This document shows, piece after piece, positions 19,700-53,306 of a DNA stretch of 64,000 nt. Where the stretch lies: the NCBI RefSeq assembly GCF_058153355.1, contig NZ_CM177019.1; one strand, given 5' to 3'. The number at the start of each line of letters is the position of its first letter. The stretch's first letter is position 1. The position numbers and the translations under genes are program-made. The notes beneath the pieces are model-generated. The model searched no databases, was not told where the DNA came from, and worked only from the letters and a program-made list of their open reading frames with translations.

Positions 19700-19999
19700 C
19701 CTGCGCTAGCGCAGGCCAGAAGAGGCGCGTTGCCCAAGTAACGGTGTTGGAGGAGCCAGTCCTGTGATAACACCTGAGGGGGTGCATCGCCGAGGTGATT
19801 GAACGGCTGGCCACGTTCATCATCGGCTACAGGGGCTGAATCCCCTGGGTTGTCACCAGAAGCGTTCGCAGTCGGGCGTTTCGCAAGTGGTGGAGCACTT
19901 CTGGGTGAAAATAGTAGCGAAGTATCGCTCTGCGCCCACCCGTCTTCCGCTCTTCCCTTGTGCCAAGGCTGAAAATGGATCCCCTGACACGAGGTAGTT
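19700..19999 (+). promoter_or_regulatory. lysC 5' leader containing the lysine riboswitch (L-box)
   Basis: Leader sequence GAGGCGCGTTGCCCAAGTAACGGTGTTGGAGGAGCCAGTCCTGTGATAACACCTGAGGGGGTGCATCGCCGAGGTGATTGAACGGCTGG... matches the E. coli lysC leader as I recall it; immediately upstream of lysC. Confidence 0.85.
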
Positions 20000-21349
20000 A
20001 TGTCTGAAATTGTTGTCTCCAAATTTGGCGGTACCAGCGTAGCTGATTTTGACGCCATGAACCGCAGCGCTGATATTGTGCTTTCTGATGCCAACGTACG
20101 TTTAGTTGTCCTCTCGGCTTCTGCTGGTATCACTAATCTGCTGGTCGCTTTAGCTGAAGGACTGGAACCTGGCGAGCGATTCGAAAAACTCGACGCAATC
20201 CGCAATATCCAGTTTGCCATTCTGGAACGTCTGCGTTACCCGAACGTTATCCGTGAAGAGATTGAACGTCTGCTGGAGAACATTACTGTTCTGGCAGAAG
20301 CGGCGGCGCTGGCAACGTCTCCGGCGCTGACAGATGAACTGGTCAGCCACGGCGAGCTGATGTCGACCCTGCTGTTTGTTGAGATCCTGCGCGAACGCGA
20401 TATTCAGGCACAGTGGTTTGATGTACGTAAAGTGATGCGTACTAATGACCGATTTGGTCGTGCAGAGCCAGACGTAGCCGCGCTGGCGGAACTGGCTGCG
20501 CTGCAGCTGCTCCCGCGCCTCAATGAAGGCTTAGTGATCACCCAAGGATTTATCGGCAGCGAAAGTAAAGGTCGTACAACGACGCTTGGCCGTGGAGGCA
20601 GCGATTATACGGCAGCCTTGCTGGCGGAGGCCTTACACGCTTCTCGTGTTGATATCTGGACCGATGTCCCAGGCATCTACACCACCGATCCACGCGTGGT
20701 CACCGCAGCAAAACGTATTGATGAAATCGCGTTTGCCGAAGCGGCAGAGATGGCAACTTTTGGTGCAAAAGTACTGCATCCGGCAACATTGCTACCCGCA
20801 GTACGCAGCGATATTCCGGTGTTTGTCGGCTCCAGTAAAGACCCACGCGCAGGTGGTACGCTGGTGTGCAATAAAACTGAAAATCCGCCGCTGTTCCGCG
20901 CCCTGGCGCTTCGTCGTAATCAGACTCTGCTCACTTTGCACAGCCTGAATATGCTGCATTCTCGCGGTTTCCTCGCGGAAGTTTTTGGCATTCTCGCGCG
21001 GCATAATATCTCGGTGGATTTAATCACCACATCAGAAGTGAGCGTGGCATTAACCCTTGATACCACCGGTTCAACCTCCACTGGCGATACATTGCTGACG
21101 CAATCTCTGCTGATGGAGCTTTCCGCACTGTGCCGGGTAGAAGTGGAAGAAGGCCTGGCGCTGGTCGCGTTGATTGGCAATGACCTGTCAAAAGCCTGCG
21201 GCGTAGGCAAAGAGGTATTTGGCGTACTGGAACCGTTTAACATCCGCATGATTTGCTACGGCGCATCCAGCCATAACCTGTGCTTCCTGGTGCCCGGCGA
21301 AGATGCCGAGCAGGTGGTGCAGAAGCTGCATTTTAATTTGTTTGAGTAA
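20000..21349 (+). CDS. lysC: lysine-sensitive aspartokinase III
   Basis: 449-aa ORF beginning MSEIVVSKFGGTSVADFDAMNRSADIVLSDANVRLVVLSASAGITNLL, matching LysC. Confidence 0.97.
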   Translation: MSEIVVSKFGGTSVADFDAMNRSADIVLSDANVRLVVLSASAGITNLLVALAEGLEPGERFEKLDAIRNIQFAILERLRYPNVIREEIERLLENITVLAEAAALATSPALTDELVSHGELMSTLLFVEILRERDIQAQWFDVRKVMRTNDRFGRAEPDVAALAELAALQLLPRLNEGLVITQGFIGSESKGRTTTLGRGGSDYTAALLAEALHASRVDIWTDVPGIYTTDPRVVTAAKRIDEIAFAEAAEMATFGAKVLHPATLLPAVRSDIPVFVGSSKDPRAGGTLVCNKTENPPLFRALALRRNQTLLTLHSLNMLHSRGFLAEVFGILARHNISVDLITTSEVSVALTLDTTGSTSTGDTLLTQSLLMELSALCRVEVEEGLALVALIGNDLSKACGVGKEVFGVLEPFNIRMICYGASSHNLCFLVPGEDAEQVVQKLHFNLFE

Positions 21350-21493
21350 TATTTCCCTACTGGCGTATAACGCTCACCAATTGTTATACGCCATCCTCAC
21401 TAAAAATATAGATTAAATAATATCTGAAAAGCAAAATCACTCCTGTAGAACAGTATTATAATCACCGAAAAATATCATTTAACAGGAGTGTTA

Positions 21494-22423
21494 ATGGCTA
21501 CATTAATGGAAAAAGATGCGCTTTTAAACGGAGCCAGTCAGTGCATCGCGTTTTTATCAAATATCGTTGATAATTGCTCCGTTTCGTCACGTCAGGATTC
21601 AGTCGATGATCTCACACGATTAGTTGGCTATCGCGATTATCTTTATTCCACTCCAGCTGAATTTGTTGATTTTACACAGGGAAAGAGTCACCTTCAGCAG
21701 GTAAGAACTCAATATCAGCGTGAATTCAATAATACTGCACATTCAGAAAATAAAGTATCTTTTGATTCTATTTGGCAGCGTCTGACAAATCATGAAGTCA
21801 CACCGCAACAGCATCCCATTGGTTTTGTTTTAGGTGGGCAACCCGGAGCGGGTAAATCATCGCTGATTGAATTAGCAAAAAGGGAAACAAAGAATAATAT
21901 AATGATTATTAACGGTGATGATTTCAGATTTCTACACCCTGATTTTAATTATATCTACCAAACTCATGGGGATGATTTTGTTACCCATACGGCGAAATTT
22001 TCCGGCGAAACGGTCGAACGAGCAATTGAGAGGGCGATAGTCAGTAAACTCAACATTGTTGTCGAAGGAACATTTCGTAATGCCACTACGCCGCTACAAA
22101 CATTAAAAAAACTCAAAGATGCAGGCTACCAAACAAACGTCATGATAAAAACCACCTCAGCGACGGTAAGCTGGGAAAGCACCAATGAACGGTATAATAA
22201 GGACAAAGAGGCGGGAAATATCGCCCGAAAAGTGGATAAAAACCACCACGATCTCGTCACCGATTTGCTGGCAGAAAATGCCAGCAAGGTGTTTGCTTCG
22301 AACCTGGCAGATAAGTTTGCGGTGTATTCGCGTGAGAAGATGATATTTAGTTCACAAGCGGCAACGAATGACGATATTGCGACGCTTATACAGAAGGTAA
22401 TCAGCGGGAATTCACAAGAATAA
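21494..22423 (+). CDS. zeta-toxin-family P-loop kinase with an N-terminal extension of about 100 aa (EzeT-like single-chain toxin-antitoxin architecture)
   Basis: Walker A GGQPGAGKSS, followed by INGDDFRFLHPDF and VVEGTFR, which align with zeta-toxin motifs (GGQPGSGKTS / DxF / VIEGTGR); ATG at 21494 preceded by AGGAG; AT-rich relative to neighbours. Confidence 0.72.
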   Translation: MATLMEKDALLNGASQCIAFLSNIVDNCSVSSRQDSVDDLTRLVGYRDYLYSTPAEFVDFTQGKSHLQQVRTQYQREFNNTAHSENKVSFDSIWQRLTNHEVTPQQHPIGFVLGGQPGAGKSSLIELAKRETKNNIMIINGDDFRFLHPDFNYIYQTHGDDFVTHTAKFSGETVERAIERAIVSKLNIVVEGTFRNATTPLQTLKKLKDAGYQTNVMIKTTSATVSWESTNERYNKDKEAGNIARKVDKNHHDLVTDLLAENASKVFASNLADKFAVYSREKMIFSSQAATNDDIATLIQKVISGNSQE

Positions 22424-22455
22424 TAAGGGATGATGGAGTGAAATAACGCCGGGCA

Positions 22456-23247
22456 TCACGTCCGGCGTATCACTGTTTGATACAACAACCCATCCAGCTC
22501 CCTGGCATCTCCATCCCTGCTATCCGGTAACACTGGTGGAATTTCCCCACGCGCCAGTTCCGCACGAATAAACGCATGTAACAAAGGACGGCGCGGACCA
22601 TATTCCGCTTCTCCCGCGCGCTGTTTACGTTCCAGCAGTTCGTCTATTTCTGCGCGTAACGGCGCATCAAGCTCGCTTCCCGCCAGTAACTCGGCAAAGC
22701 GCATTGGCGGCACGCCTTTTCCCGCTTCAACCCAGCGTACGGCCAGCAGCGGACGCAGCACGTAAAAGTATTTTTTCAGTCGAACTTCATCGCCCTGCAA
22801 ATAGTCGCGGAAGTTTTTCTGCGCCATCGAATAGTAATGCCAGCGTGCACGCAACGAAGAAAACCACATTGGGACCATTGCCTTAAGCGCCGTTATCGTT
22901 TCTTCATCTTGTTGATAGACCACCGGAGAATCCAGCCATTCTATCAGCGTCGGATTCGCGCCTTTCAATAATCCCAGCGCCTTACGCCACTCCCAACCGG
23001 AAACATCTAATTCGTCGTCGATGGGCAGCTCGATAACATCGCGCGGCGCCTCCACCCGCAGATACCATTCCAGCGGGTGAACATACAAAAATCGTACATC
23101 GTAGTCGCTGTCGGGAGAGGCAAATCCCCAGCCGCGGCTGCCTGATTCGCAGGCGTACAGCACTTTCACGCCATAGAGACGTTCTATTTCTTTTAACTGC
23201 TGCGATACCCGTTCGCGCATCGCAGCACTGACTCCATTTAATGGCAT
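22456..23247 (-). CDS. pol-beta-superfamily nucleotidyltransferase (GS-x9-DxD motif; resembles the COG3541 / RlaP-type predicted nucleotidyltransferase family)
   Basis: CESGSRGWGFASPDSDYDVRF contains the G-S...D-x-D nucleotidyltransferase signature; about 263 aa from the ATG at 23247 (ORF-track GTG at 23256 overlaps the upstream gene); translationally coupled to the SPFH gene. Confidence 0.68.
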   Translation of the reverse strand: MPLNGVSAAMRERVSQQLKEIERLYGVKVLYACESGSRGWGFASPDSDYDVRFLYVHPLEWYLRVEAPRDVIELPIDDELDVSGWEWRKALGLLKGANPTLIEWLDSPVVYQQDEETITALKAMVPMWFSSLRARWHYYSMAQKNFRDYLQGDEVRLKKYFYVLRPLLAVRWVEAGKGVPPMRFAELLAGSELDAPLRAEIDELLERKQRAGEAEYGPRRPLLHAFIRAELARGEIPPVLPDSRDGDARELDGLLYQTVIRRT

Positions 23248-23252
23248 GTTAC

Positions 23253-24380
23253 TCACCCTTTGATATTAACCAACCCATGCAGAACCTGATCCAGACCGCC
23301 AAATACAGAGATGTTATCGATCCGCTCAGCCACTCTCTCCAGCGTTTCCAGTTCTTTTAAGCGTAACGCCACCGGGTTGTTTTCCATGACTTTAGCGGTA
23401 TTGAGTAACGAACGTGTCGCTGCCGTTTCTTCACGCCGACGAATCACATTCGCCTGCGCAGATTTCTCTGCCTCAACCAGCTGCGCGAGGATATTTTTCA
23501 TATCACCAGGCAGGACGATATCTTTCACCCCTAATGAGGCAATCTCCATACCAAATGGCAACATGCGCGATTTCACCTGTTCGCTGACAACGTCATCAAT
23601 GACCTGTTTATCTTCCAGCAACTCATCCAGCGTACGCGTACCTACCGCTTCACGCAGTGCAAATTGCAATTCCCGATACAAATGATCAATCGGCTTCGTT
23701 AACTGACTAAATGCCAATAACACGTCGCTGTAGCGCCAGTTGGCGGCGAGGTTAATCCGCAGATTGACTTTATCTTTCGTTAAGATTTCTTGCCCGCTGA
23801 CTTCCAGTACCTGCAAGCGGGTGTCAACCACTTCAGCTTCAACCAGATGGTTAATTTTCCAGTACGCAGTCAGTCCCGGCAGTAACAGCGCCTGCGTTTC
23901 ACCATCGATTTTCAGTACACCTACGTGCCAGGCCGGAACCTGCACCGTCAGTATCGCATCGCGGCCTTTAACTGCCCCTTTGCGCCGTGGCTGCAATACC
24001 GCATTCATCACCTCCGTTTGAACCTGGACTTGCTGCGTATTCATCCGCACAAGCGTCAAATCATCCTCTACACGCCAGTACAAACGACGCGTTGATGGCG
24101 GCAGGATCTCCAGCAAAATACCGTCCATATACAACGCCCCGGCTTCAGTCTCCGACAAGTCGGCCACCACGCAATATCTTTCCACCCAATCAGGCTGAAA
24201 GCGGCGCAAATAATCCGCCAGCACGTCGGGAACTTCGCTGCCATCGAGCGTAATCAGCAAGACTTCTGGCGTATTTAACCAGGGTAAAAGATGCTCGCCT
24301 GCAGGCAGCACTTTGTAGTAATCGCCATTTCTGGAGAGTAATGCCAGCTGATCTTTTCTTACGCTTATTTTCTTAATCAT
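23253..24380 (-). CDS. SPFH/band-7 (stomatin-like) domain protein with an N-terminal domain of about 190 aa and no obvious membrane anchor
   Basis: The C-terminal half (ILTKDKVNLRINLAANWRY...GVKDIVLPGDMKNILAQLVEAEKSAQANVIRRREETAATRSL...PVALRLKELETLERVA) aligns with the stomatin/HflC SPFH core and the coiled-coil AEAE region; SD AAGGA before the ATG at 24380. Confidence 0.75.
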   Translation of the reverse strand: MIKKISVRKDQLALLSRNGDYYKVLPAGEHLLPWLNTPEVLLITLDGSEVPDVLADYLRRFQPDWVERYCVVADLSETEAGALYMDGILLEILPPSTRRLYWRVEDDLTLVRMNTQQVQVQTEVMNAVLQPRRKGAVKGRDAILTVQVPAWHVGVLKIDGETQALLLPGLTAYWKINHLVEAEVVDTRLQVLEVSGQEILTKDKVNLRINLAANWRYSDVLLAFSQLTKPIDHLYRELQFALREAVGTRTLDELLEDKQVIDDVVSEQVKSRMLPFGMEIASLGVKDIVLPGDMKNILAQLVEAEKSAQANVIRRREETAATRSLLNTAKVMENNPVALRLKELETLERVAERIDNISVFGGLDQVLHGLVNIKG

Positions 24381-24908
24381 TATCTATTCCTTGCTTAACA
24401 GCCGTCGCGGAAGCAGATACGAAGCGACAGGGGAATTCCCTTTTGCCTGTTACCCGGCGTCTTTATCGGCGACGTTATCGGGGATCGCTGACTGCGCAAT
24501 CCCTCATTTTTTATTTAATAAGTTACAACCAGTATTCATTTCAGGAATGAATGCGGGAATCGAGCCCGTAATTGGCGTCAAAGGCTGACGGAACACGCCC
24601 GGAAAACAGCCTGGCCGTTCCTGGTGTGCCGACGGGGTTTAACCCCCTTTGAAATTCAGTATCAACGCAAAAGTGTTATTGCGAGAAGCGTGCCAGAATT
24701 GAGAAATATTTTTAACCAAATGAAAAATAAAGAGTTAATAAATTACTGTTGTTTGTAGGGGGAAAACTTTTTGCTAAATTTTTATCTGTATTTATCGTCA
24801 ATTATCAAGAAAGATAGATATTTAAGAAGGGAACAAAGGAATATTATCAGTTCTGCTTGCAAATGAATTCCCGTACACTGAATCCATCAGCTAACTGAGG
24901 GCACCATC

Positions 24909-25181
24909 ATGGCACTCCCCCGTATTACCCAAAAAGAGATGACTGAACGCGAGCAGCGTGAACTTAAAACACTGCTGGATCGGGCGCGTATTGCGCATGG
25001 TCGCGTGCTGACCAACTCGGAAACTAACAGCATTAAGAAAGAGTACATCGATAAATTAATGGTTGAGCGTGAGGCTGAAGCAAAAAAAGCCCGCCAGTTG
25101 AAGAAAAAGCAGGCTTATAAACCGGATCCTGAAGCGTCGTTTAGCTGGTCGGCAAATACGTCAACACGCGGCAGGCGTTAA
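24909..25181 (+). CDS. yjbD: YjbD (DUF3811) small protein
   Basis: 90-aa ORF MALPRITQKEMTEREQRELKTLLDRARIAHGRVL..., convergent with and abutting rluF as in K-12. Confidence 0.85.
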   Translation: MALPRITQKEMTEREQRELKTLLDRARIAHGRVLTNSETNSIKKEYIDKLMVEREAEAKKARQLKKKQAYKPDPEASFSWSANTSTRGRR

Positions 25182-51984: not shown

Positions 51985-53306
51985 CGCGACAGTTTTGCCA
52001 ATAGCGTTTTGCGCGTAATCCCTAACTGACGGGCGGCTTCGGTTTTGTTGCCGCCCGTTTTCTCCAGCGCCGCCAGAATCACTTCTTTTTCGACTTCCAC
52101 CAGCGGCTGAATATCCTGACTTTGCACCAGCGGGATCGGCGTACTGGCAATCGCCAGCGGCAGCTCGCGTTCGGAAATATATTCCCCGGTCAGCAGCACC
52201 ACCGCCCGTTCCACCGCGTTTTCCAGTTCACGAATATTTCCCGGCCAGTCGTAGTGAATCAGCAGATCCATCGCCTGGGGCGTAAACCCTTTTACCGCCT
52301 TGCGATTGCGTTCGGCAAAGCGCTGCAGAAAATGGTTAGCCAGCAGAGGAATATCTTCCCGCCGTTGCCGTAGCGAAGGTACTTCAATCGCCACCACATT
52401 CAGGCGATAGTAGAGATCCTGACGAAAACGCCCGGCCTTTACCTCAGCGGCAAGATCGCGATGAGTCGCCGCAATCAGCCGGACATCAACCGAGATAGTC
52501 TGATTGCTACCGACACGCTGGACTTCGCGCTCCTGAATCGCACGCAGTAGACGAACCTGCATCATCGGTGAGATATCGCCAATTTCATCGAGAAACAGCG
52601 TGCCGCCGTCTGCCTCCACAAAGCGCCCTTCCCGCCGTTTGTCGGCTCCGGTAAACGCCCCTTTTTCGTGACCGAACAATTCAGATTCCAGCAAGGATTC
52701 GTTGAGTGCCGCACAGTTGAGCGTCACCAGCGGCTTTTCACTCCGTGCGCTACTGGCGTGAATCGCCCTGGCGACCAGCTCTTTACCGGTGCCGGAATCG
52801 CCGTGGATCAGCACCGTGGCTTCCGATGGCGCGACGAGGGCAATTTCACTGAGCAGGTGCTGCATCGCCGGGCTTTTACCGACCATACCGAACTGGCTGG
52901 CAGACACCGCAGGCGTTTCAGCATCAACACTGTGCGTATGCGCAAGCGCCTTTTCCAGGGTTGCCTGCAGGTTATCGAAATCCAGCGGCTTGATGAGATA
53001 ATCCAGTGCCCCGGTTTTCAACGCCTCTACCGCCGTCTCGACGCTGGAGTACGCGGTCATAATCAGTACCGGAATTGCCGGATTTAACGCTTTGATCTCT
53101 TTCAGCGTGGCGATGCCATCCATCTCTGCCATTCGCACATCACAAAGCACAAGATCAAAAACCTGTTCCCGCACTTGCTCCAGCGCCTGTCGCCCGCTGT
53201 TCGCCAGCGCGACGTTATAGCCCCAGCCGCGCAGCAATGCCTGCAAGATAGTGCAGTGGCTAATGTCATCATCCACCACCAGAATATCGATATTATCGTG
53301 CGTCAT
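51981..53306 (-). CDS. zraR: sigma54-dependent two-component response regulator
   Basis: 441-aa ORF with a receiver domain ([14 protein letters not shown]...), an AAA+ sigma54-interaction domain ([14 protein letters not shown]) and a C-terminal HTH. Confidence 0.93.

Follow-up and report, generated by a model that had tools for sequence, protein, structure and literature searches.

Between lysC and yjbD in the DNA that we analysed, a 64,000-nt window of contig NZ_CM177019.1 (RefSeq assembly GCF_058153355.1), lie three protein-coding genes and a 528-bp gap, in which an earlier note on the sequence had seen a single, horizontally acquired island of conflict-related genes. As that note stated, the two flanking genes are neighbours in Escherichia coli K-12, only 252 bp apart in strain MG1655, and the stretch of about 3.5 kb that separates them here is indeed missing from K-12. 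We read the region, with a probability of about 70%, as two independent modules side by side: the toxin EzeT, and a reduced RtcR-type RNA-repair operon without rtcR or rtcB of its own. The layout, in window coordinates, is as follows.

20000–21349, + strand: lysC (open reading frame (ORF) list)
21350–21493: lysC-ezeT spacer, 144 bp, 31.9% GC, the left junction of K-12 homology
21494–22423, + strand: ezeT, ORF of 309 amino acids (aa), single-chain zeta toxin (Pfam Zeta_toxin, EzeT orthology)
22456–23247, - strand: rlaP, 263-aa ORF, RNA-ligase-associated RNA nucleotidyltransferase of the Pol-beta superfamily (Pfam RlaP, PF10127)
23253–24380, - strand: SPFH/Band-7 gene, 375-aa ORF, predicted soluble stomatin-like protein (Pfam Band_7)
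24381–24908: gap without protein-coding ORF, 528 bp
24909–25181, + strand: yjbD, followed by rluF

According to the ORF list, the SPFH gene and rlaP are separated by 5 nt and form an operon on the - strand that is convergent with the + strand zeta gene, as the earlier note had described; the stop codons of ezeT and rlaP lie 32 bp apart, and the start of rlaP was taken as the ATG at 23247, per RefSeq practice. The note's three family assignments were also right, with Pfam values of 6.4e-40 for the zeta toxin, 6.6e-24 for Band_7/SPFH and 2.9e-96 for RlaP, the last over the full length of the ORF. Outside the region, blastn identity between the window and K-12 is 96.2–96.3% on both sides, and the junction comparison that the note had suggested places the break in K-12 homology precisely at the lysC stop, with homology picking up again near 24779.

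The distribution of the region was determined among 5426 complete E. coli genomes. A K-12-like empty site is present in 3787 of them, whereas the island was matched in 1642, of which 1424 match over at least 80% of its length. Carriers, among them E. coli W/KO11FL, O104:H4 and E110019, thus make up about 30% of the genomes and K-12 is without the region, so the genes are accessory, as had been proposed; they are not shared by K-12 and most E. coli. The matches are all chromosomal and always at the lysC-yjbD site, usually one per genome and 2 at most. In most carriers identity to the window is about 94%, and the SPFH proteins closest to that of the window carry the label Escherichia fergusonii; the window thus probably derives from a divergent lineage of Escherichia. 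About 218 genomes match just the SPFH-rlaP-gap portion and have no ezeT. The lysC-yjbD locus therefore has three alleles in E. coli: empty, full island, and SPFH plus rlaP without ezeT.

The AT-rich composition reported earlier holds for part of the region. It applies to ezeT (41.4% GC; 38% at third codon positions) and to two short spacers, the only segments that are compositionally atypical, but not to rlaP (53.9%) or the SPFH gene (50.3%), which are close to the window mean of 51.2%; foreign composition is thus confined to ezeT and not island-wide. Classical hallmarks of a genomic island were not found: there is no integrase ORF in the ORF list, ARAGORN detects no tRNA, and the search for flanking direct repeats at the island borders returned only chance-level 12–17-mers.

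The zeta gene belongs to an already named system, because its product is 91% identical in amino acid sequence to EzeT at the identical locus. The alignment with WP_000212693.1 of E. coli E110019 is gapless over the full 308 residues, and in that strain, too, the gene sits between lysC and a nucleotidyltransferase gene. The Zeta_toxin domain spans residues 101–282, PezT/zeta entries of the PDB match at 5e-31 and 1.6e-26, the GGQPGAGKS P-loop (Walker A) and the GDDFR motif are visible in the alignment, and the N-terminal extension of 100 residues aligns to EzeT without gaps. The original description of EzeT is reportedly that of Rocker and Meinhart (2015, Mol Microbiol 97:589). We therefore identify the window gene as an orthologue of the published, characterised EzeT; the earlier note's caveat that a named system might already exist applies to this gene and not to the whole locus. 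A 2023 review names WP_000212693.1 as the experimentally validated 'dual TA EzeT' (TA, toxin-antitoxin), located beside lysine-sensitive aspartokinase 3 in B1 strains (PMC10532202). The C-terminal domain of EzeT is a UDP-N-acetylglucosamine (UNAG) kinase; a protein without the first 83 residues causes lysis at 30 °C or below, and residues 1–82 neutralise the toxin in cis or in trans (PMC4803016, PMC4826407). UNAG kinase activity and N-terminal cis-inhibition of the window protein are taken over from this literature on the B1 allele. The C-terminal zeta-type kinase would accordingly phosphorylate UDP-N-acetylglucosamine and thereby block peptidoglycan synthesis, with the N-terminal ~82 residues acting as an inhibitor in cis. 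The two alleles differ at 27 of 308 residues, with changes in both domains.

Upstream of ezeT there is just the 144-bp spacer behind lysC, with no epsilon or PezA gene. The closest plasmid-borne zeta homologues are only about 41% identical to the ezeT product. When the three island proteins were compared with NCBIfam, only below-cutoff PezT and HflK/C matches were obtained. The defence-predictor check that had been proposed was run with PADLOC (PADLOC-DB 2.0) and gave no defence-system match: a single sub-threshold P-loop match was returned for the zeta protein (E 0.0049), and none for SPFH or RlaP. The search thus gives no grounds for regarding the three genes as one system or as a defence island, and the description 'conflict-related' fits ezeT, as a toxin-antitoxin gene. 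We also considered EzeT as an RNA kinase of the repair module and rejected the idea on the grounds of missing co-occurrence and the published UNAG kinase activity. As a separate observation, a 9-bp perfect hairpin (CACTCCTGT/ACAGGAGTG; window 21438–21490, z = -3.66) lies over the ezeT Shine-Dalgarno sequence; a TATAAT at 21456–21461 falls in its loop, and the 5' arm may lie upstream of the transcription start.

The protein encoded by rlaP is 48–87% identical to RlaP proteins of RtcR-linked loci, where their genes follow SPFH/rtcB, and the catalytic GS...DSD motif, read from its sequence, is intact. A PDB sequence search with RlaP returned no entry. RlaP, named for its association with RNA ligases, adds one or two nucleoside monophosphates to RNA 3'-OH ends, with a preference for damaged RNA (bioRxiv 10.64898/2025.12.29.696909). 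RlaP-family genes also occur in phages, for example T4 NrdC.11. The SPFH protein is 42–82% identical over its full length to SPFH proteins encoded beside RtcR. Its AlphaFold model, computed from 40 homologues, is confident (pLDDT 86.7) and consists of N-terminal beta modules (residues 2–44 and 70–114), the SPFH domain and a 40-residue helix; Foldseek aligns this model with major vault protein across 405–511 columns. No hydrophobic segment was detected (Kyte-Doolittle 19-residue maximum 1.13), and the operon partner is RlaP, not NfeD or FtsH. Because of the vault-like predicted architecture, the lack of a hydrophobic segment and the lack of an NfeD partner, we infer a soluble scaffold that would form rings or cages, in keeping with the notion of a scaffold paired with a cognate RNA. 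Mobilisable plasmids are essentially devoid of the SPFH family. Longer SPFH ORFs of about 515–540 aa, with an additional copy of the N-terminal beta module (two matched stretches), were seen in Providencia, Gilliamella, Snodgrassella and Xenorhabdus (our loci L020, L033–L035, L038, L042, L047 and L048).

We then turned to the genomic surroundings of SPFH homologues. A search of 1.84 billion representative proteins, clustered at 50%, gave 542 clusters at E of at most 1e-30, and among the best matches listed the alignment covers nearly the entire query, the N-terminal region as well as SPFH. The first look-up of genome context showed a divergent RtcR gene, a 477-bp gap, Band_7 and RlaP. This arrangement recurs in 80 SPFH loci obtained from a scan of species-representative genomes of other taxa, with neighbours assigned by ORF-level blastp: in most proteobacterial loci, RtcR is divergent and 5' of the SPFH gene, and RlaP lies 3' of it, usually behind a gene for a 408-aa RtcB (found between SPFH and rlaP in L007, L008, L009, L014 and others). 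NCBIfam supports these neighbour assignments, with an RtcR equivalog match of 832 bits (cutoff 650) and a match to the RtcB ligase family. None of the 80 loci contains a zeta-toxin homologue. Arrays of 5–17 tRNA genes were observed directly beside the SPFH gene in L044 (4538–6582), L074 (8986–12697), L075 (215–2455) and L086 (1351–4039), as well as in L054, L028 and L036.

Five enterobacterial genera have the order rluF-yjbD-panS-rtcR<>SPFH-(rtcB)-rlaP-lysC-pgi, in the same chromosomal slot as the window: Pseudocitrobacter (L065), Enterobacter sp. BIGb0383 (L009), Siccibacter (L011), Pluralibacter (L063) and Kosakonia (L008), the last of these ending at rlaP, with no lysC/pgi match recovered there. 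Compared with these genera, Escherichia has lost panS, rtcR and rtcB and has gained ezeT between rlaP and lysC. Such loci are known from the literature. In some bacteria, RtcB is encoded beside a Band-7 protein and a 'band-7-associated tRNA', a prediction of Burroughs & Aravind 2016 (NAR) as cited in a preprint of the Wolin laboratory (bioRxiv 10.1101/312249), and in Pseudomonas aeruginosa PA14 the SPFH protein PaFlo8 is embedded in an rtc locus (PMC13086221, a 2026 paper), which also includes PaRlaP (bioRxiv 10.64898/2025.12.29.696909).

The earlier description of the 528-bp gap as non-coding is correct as far as protein genes are concerned, but we identify in it the promoter of the SPFH operon together with its leader RNA. 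Its elements, all on the - strand, are listed here.

24783–24806, - strand: motif GATAA-N4-CGATA-N5-AGATA, resembling an upstream activating sequence (UAS), the presumed RtcR binding region; unique in the window, 0 of 100 shuffles
24680–24695, - strand: sigma-54 (-24/-12) promoter TGGCACGCTTCTCGCA, matched nowhere else in the 64 kb (chance expectation 0.07)
24381–24669, - strand: candidate leader of the SPFH-rlaP operon, about 290 nt, its 5' end inferred about 12 nt downstream of the -12 element
24543–24669, - strand: 5' structured domain of the leader, a putative degenerate first tRNA-like element (helices H1–H3 plus a T-arm-like hairpin)
24554–24568, - strand: T-arm-like hairpin, CGGG-CUCGAUU-CCCG
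24424–24469, - strand: 3' domain of the leader, with H5 at 24454–24469 and H6 at 24424–24453

The same sigma-54 element is present in 41 other SPFH loci, 308–682 nt 5' of the SPFH gene (752 in one); within Enterobacterales the distance to the start codon is 308–382 nt, and it is 315 nt in the window. The UAS-like motif lies 111 nt 5' of the promoter in the window and 120–134 nt in 10 RtcR-linked enterobacterial loci (120–124 in nine), and a related motif stands 122 nt 5' of the sigma-54 promoter of K-12 rtcB. A generic scan for sigma-70 promoters and terminators did not exceed the shuffled expectation.

Conserved structure in the leader was evaluated on an alignment (A2) of the window and 12 RtcR-linked enterobacterial leaders, in which RNAalifold predicts 36 pairs, 22 of them with compensatory changes. 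In an adjusted structure of 35 pairs, from which two long-range pairs were removed and to which one T-arm pair was added, 93.8% of cells are paired, compared with 44–48% in slid-partner controls, and 0 of 500 shuffles reach the observed values. A covariance model built without the window (R1) has a single match in the 64 kb, at 24543–24669 on the - strand (73 bits, E = 2.3e-18). The T-arm-like hairpin GGGTTCGAWTCCC hardly varies in alignments A2 and A3. The leader of E110019 is 97.7% identical to that of the window, more than any neighbouring gene, and the two T-arms differ by a compensatory double change, C-G to U-A, and by a wobble.

The 41 non-enterobacterial SPFH loci in which ARAGORN calls tRNA-like genes, often with an aberrant anticodon loop, place this RNA in context. 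These genes lie 210–719 nt 5' of the SPFH gene, mostly 210–420 nt, and match the predicted 'b7a-tRNA'. In betaproteobacterial loci, R1 matches a second, degenerate element directly 5' of the ARAGORN-called gene; the tandem elements were noted at L037 2130–2350, L055 6500–6716, L040 6507–6724 and L019 6523–6678. Since R1 matches the gap while ARAGORN and Rfam find nothing there, the window probably retains only the degenerate element, and Enterobacterales in general, the window included, appear to keep just this first one. The leader would thus be related, in degenerate form, to the predicted 'band-7-associated tRNA', and it is not among the Rfam 15 families. An acceptor-stem or minihelix reading of the enterobacterial leader was dropped, as the proposed 5' strand is missing in the window subgroup and forms a local hairpin in the others.

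Selection was assessed by pairwise comparison of the window with E. coli E110019, as synonymous divergence (dS) and the ratio of nonsynonymous to synonymous divergence (dN/dS).

lysC: dS 0.15, dN/dS 0.027
ezeT: dS 0.17, dN/dS 0.23
rlaP: dS 0.33, dN/dS 0.076
SPFH: dS 0.16, dN/dS 0.050
rluF: dS 0.18, dN/dS 0.047

The SPFH gene and rlaP are under strong purifying, core-gene-like selection. With a dS close to the values of lysC and rluF, the SPFH-rlaP unit has diverged in step with its flanks; together with the shared slot in other genera, this indicates a unit that is probably old and syntenic and no recent island. Horizontal acquisition, as originally proposed, is thus borne out for the compositionally foreign ezeT and not for SPFH/rlaP, which combine host-like GC with flank-like dS and the same position in five genera. 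Against the neighbouring values of 0.15–0.18, dS is raised in yjbD (0.64) as well as in rlaP, which suggests local recombination or allele replacement.

The empty allele retains traces of the unit. Because the K-12 lysC-yjbD spacer still holds the UAS region in degenerate form, along with a 23-nt relic of leader H5 (24447–24469), we regard the K-12-type allele as a deletion derivative. The ezeT-less allele was inspected in one genome, that of strain MS 21-1, in which a phage-tail-only, tailocin-like cluster of about 17.7 kb stands in place of ezeT (L089 23216–40853), encoding Mor, holin, sheath, tube, tape measure, baseplate and fibres. The last gene of this cluster is a 151-aa ORF that is 79–82% identical to ORFs behind rlaP in Phytobacter and Superficieibacter (L007 10199–10654; L010 8932–9387), and because of these homologues the tail cluster may be an older neighbour of rlaP than ezeT.

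Taken together, these data lead us to treat the - strand unit, comprising UAS-like motif, sigma-54 promoter, leader, SPFH gene and rlaP, as a reduced version of the enterobacterial RtcR-controlled operon. It is independent of ezeT, because none of the 80 SPFH loci has a zeta gene, an ezeT-less allele exists, and GC differs (41% against 50–54%). It is also likely to be still functional, given dN/dS of 0.050 and 0.076, compared with 0.23 for ezeT, and the conservation of the leader. What was known already is EzeT; the remaining genes and the gap constitute a ligase-less, activator-less variant of a computationally predicted RNA-repair system. New here are a module that is orphan yet conserved, a tRNA-like leader absent from Rfam, and the presence of both in tractable E. 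coli strains.

On this basis, a working mechanism can be outlined. RNA damage, for example tRNA fragments with 2',3'-cyclic phosphate ends, would activate the resident RtcR of the distant rtcBA locus, which would bind the retained UAS in trans and fire the sigma-54 promoter. We infer trans-activation because rtcR is matched in 5424 of the 5426 genomes and because one genome, NZ_CP151045.1, has the island together with an intact rtcB-rtcR. The rtcB-rtcR pair is complete in 4838 genomes; about 586 others have a truncated rtc locus with only the 3' end of rtcR kept, beside rtcA. The SPFH-rlaP transcript would provide the tRNA-like leader RNA, and the soluble stomatin-like protein, if it forms the predicted ring or cage, would hold leader RNA and/or damaged tRNAs. 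Leader and scaffold together would organise damaged tRNA for RlaP, which would add one or two nucleotides to trimmed 3'-OH ends before ligation by RtcB encoded elsewhere. The complete picture, in which a vault-like SPFH cage with a tRNA-like leader and an RNA 3'-end-extending enzyme is switched by RtcR in trans, assisted by RtcB, and makes up an orphan Rtc branch in about 30% of E. coli, is tentative, and we would at present wager against its being right in every part.

Several observations weigh against the interpretation as a reduced repair operon. The island contains no rtcR, rtcB or rtcA and so lacks two of the parts that define an Rtc operon: no ORF lies between SPFH and rlaP, yjbD follows directly behind the gap, and tblastn with RtcR finds nothing nearby. 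The sole RtcR-like match in the 64-kb window (52116–52910, - strand) is another sigma-54-dependent activator, 35% identical to the RtcR AAA+ core, and K-12 RtcR is just 60–63% identical to the locus-linked RtcRs. In the gap, ARAGORN finds no tRNA and Rfam no known family, at gathering thresholds or at E up to 10; of the tRNA-like element only the T-arm-like hairpin survives, and the single-sequence fold of the leader is unexceptional (z = -1.0). The unit has been lost from 70% of E. coli genomes, its SPFH gene is a pseudogene with an internal stop in MS 21-1, and a PaFlo8 deletion was without phenotype in the assays that were used (PMC13086221). Finally, the first 80–100 bp of the K-12 spacer (L001 3763–3884) are matched by neither the island, the tailocin allele nor the syntenic genera, so the history of the empty allele must comprise more than simple deletions.

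Some of these points could also describe a functionless relic of an ancestral rtc-like locus, heading for loss like the K-12 allele: rtcR, rtcB and panS are already gone, most genomes lack the unit, MS 21-1 carries the internal stop and the tRNA-like element is degenerate. We consider this unlikely, as dN/dS of 0.05–0.08 at a dS of about 0.16 is as low as in lysC and rluF, both of them core genes, the promoter, the UAS and the leader have all stayed intact, no other segment is as conserved as the leader, which also shows the compensatory T-arm change, and the catalytic motif of RlaP is preserved. Alternatively, SPFH-rlaP might be active but rewired to another sigma-54 activator or condition, and serve a purpose different from Rtc-type repair, such as marking foreign or phage RNA or locking it up in an SPFH cage. 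The loss of its own RtcR and ligase would be in line with this idea, as would the phage members of the RlaP family, the vault-like architecture and the tailocin cluster that adjoins SPFH-rlaP in other alleles and genera; however, the UAS-like motif is of the kind that RtcR-linked loci and the K-12 rtcB promoter have, with nearly equal spacing from the promoter, no other activator gene is linked and no defence database was matched, which makes rewiring rather improbable. Although about 1424 E. coli genomes inherit the three genes together, with closely spaced convergent stops, an AT-rich ezeT and a toxin family typical of genetic conflict, a single acquired island with EzeT as killer and SPFH plus nucleotidyltransferase as sensor or regulator is very improbable, since zeta genes are absent from SPFH loci elsewhere, SPFH and rlaP occur without ezeT in about 218 E. 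coli genomes (with the tail cluster instead in MS 21-1), EzeT is self-contained through its cis antitoxin (PMC4803016, PMC4826407), PADLOC gave no match, the modules differ in composition and selective constraint, and SPFH-rlaP has its own sigma-54 promoter.

The interpretation as EzeT beside a reduced repair operon has consequences beyond this locus. The branch of bacterial RNA repair that involves SPFH proteins and tRNA-like RNAs has hitherto been a prediction of comparative genomics that lacks a mechanism, with one reported knockout, of PaFlo8, that showed no phenotype. The present locus puts a minimal version, consisting of promoter, leader RNA, scaffold and nucleotidyltransferase, into E. 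coli, a species in which alleles with and without it occur naturally and in which the genetics of rpoN and rtcR and assays for tRNA damage are at hand. If the RtcR-switched SPFH cage is real, it would be an SPFH-RNA particle with which bacteria salvage tRNAs, and, as it varies between strains, it would help to determine which of them survive damage by ribotoxins, colicins or antibiotics. For annotation, the zeta, slipin and nucleotidyltransferase genes are not to be read as a single system, and the 'empty' K-12 site is to be read as a deletion scar. For genome scanning, an AT-rich non-coding gap can conceal a sigma-54 promoter and a covariation-supported RNA that is missing from Rfam. Beyond the region itself, a lysine riboswitch lies 5' of lysC (19712–19908, + strand; Rfam RF00168, 99.5 bits).

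Compared with known systems, the ezeT module differs little from EzeT of E. coli, with which it shares the position beside lysC, the N-terminal extension followed by a P-loop zeta kinase and the lack of a separate antitoxin gene, while the window allele has its own residue changes, at a dN/dS of 0.23. The SPFH protein differs from membrane SPFH assemblies (stomatin, HflK/C, QmcA-YbbJ) in having neither a transmembrane or hairpin anchor nor an NfeD/FtsH partner, and, at 375 aa, it is much shorter than eukaryotic major vault protein (~860). The closest relatives of the - strand unit are RtcR-controlled rtc loci with Band-7/SPFH and RlaP, such as that of PA14: they have orthologous proteins, a sigma-54 promoter, a UAS-like motif and a homologous structured leader, and in five enterobacterial genera they occupy the same slot. 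The window unit departs from them in having no rtcR, rtcB or rtcA in cis, in the ezeT inserted downstream, and in a tRNA-like element cut down to the T-arm-like hairpin, which ARAGORN and Rfam do not see. A more distant parallel is the Salmonella rsr-yrlBA-rtcBA operon (Ro60 plus Y RNAs with a tRNA-like domain, under RtcR). There the scaffold is Ro60/TROVE and not SPFH, the RNA is unrelated in sequence, and the window unit has no ligase; in both cases, an RtcR/sigma-54 operon would bring together an RNA-binding scaffold protein, a tRNA-like RNA and end-healing enzymes.

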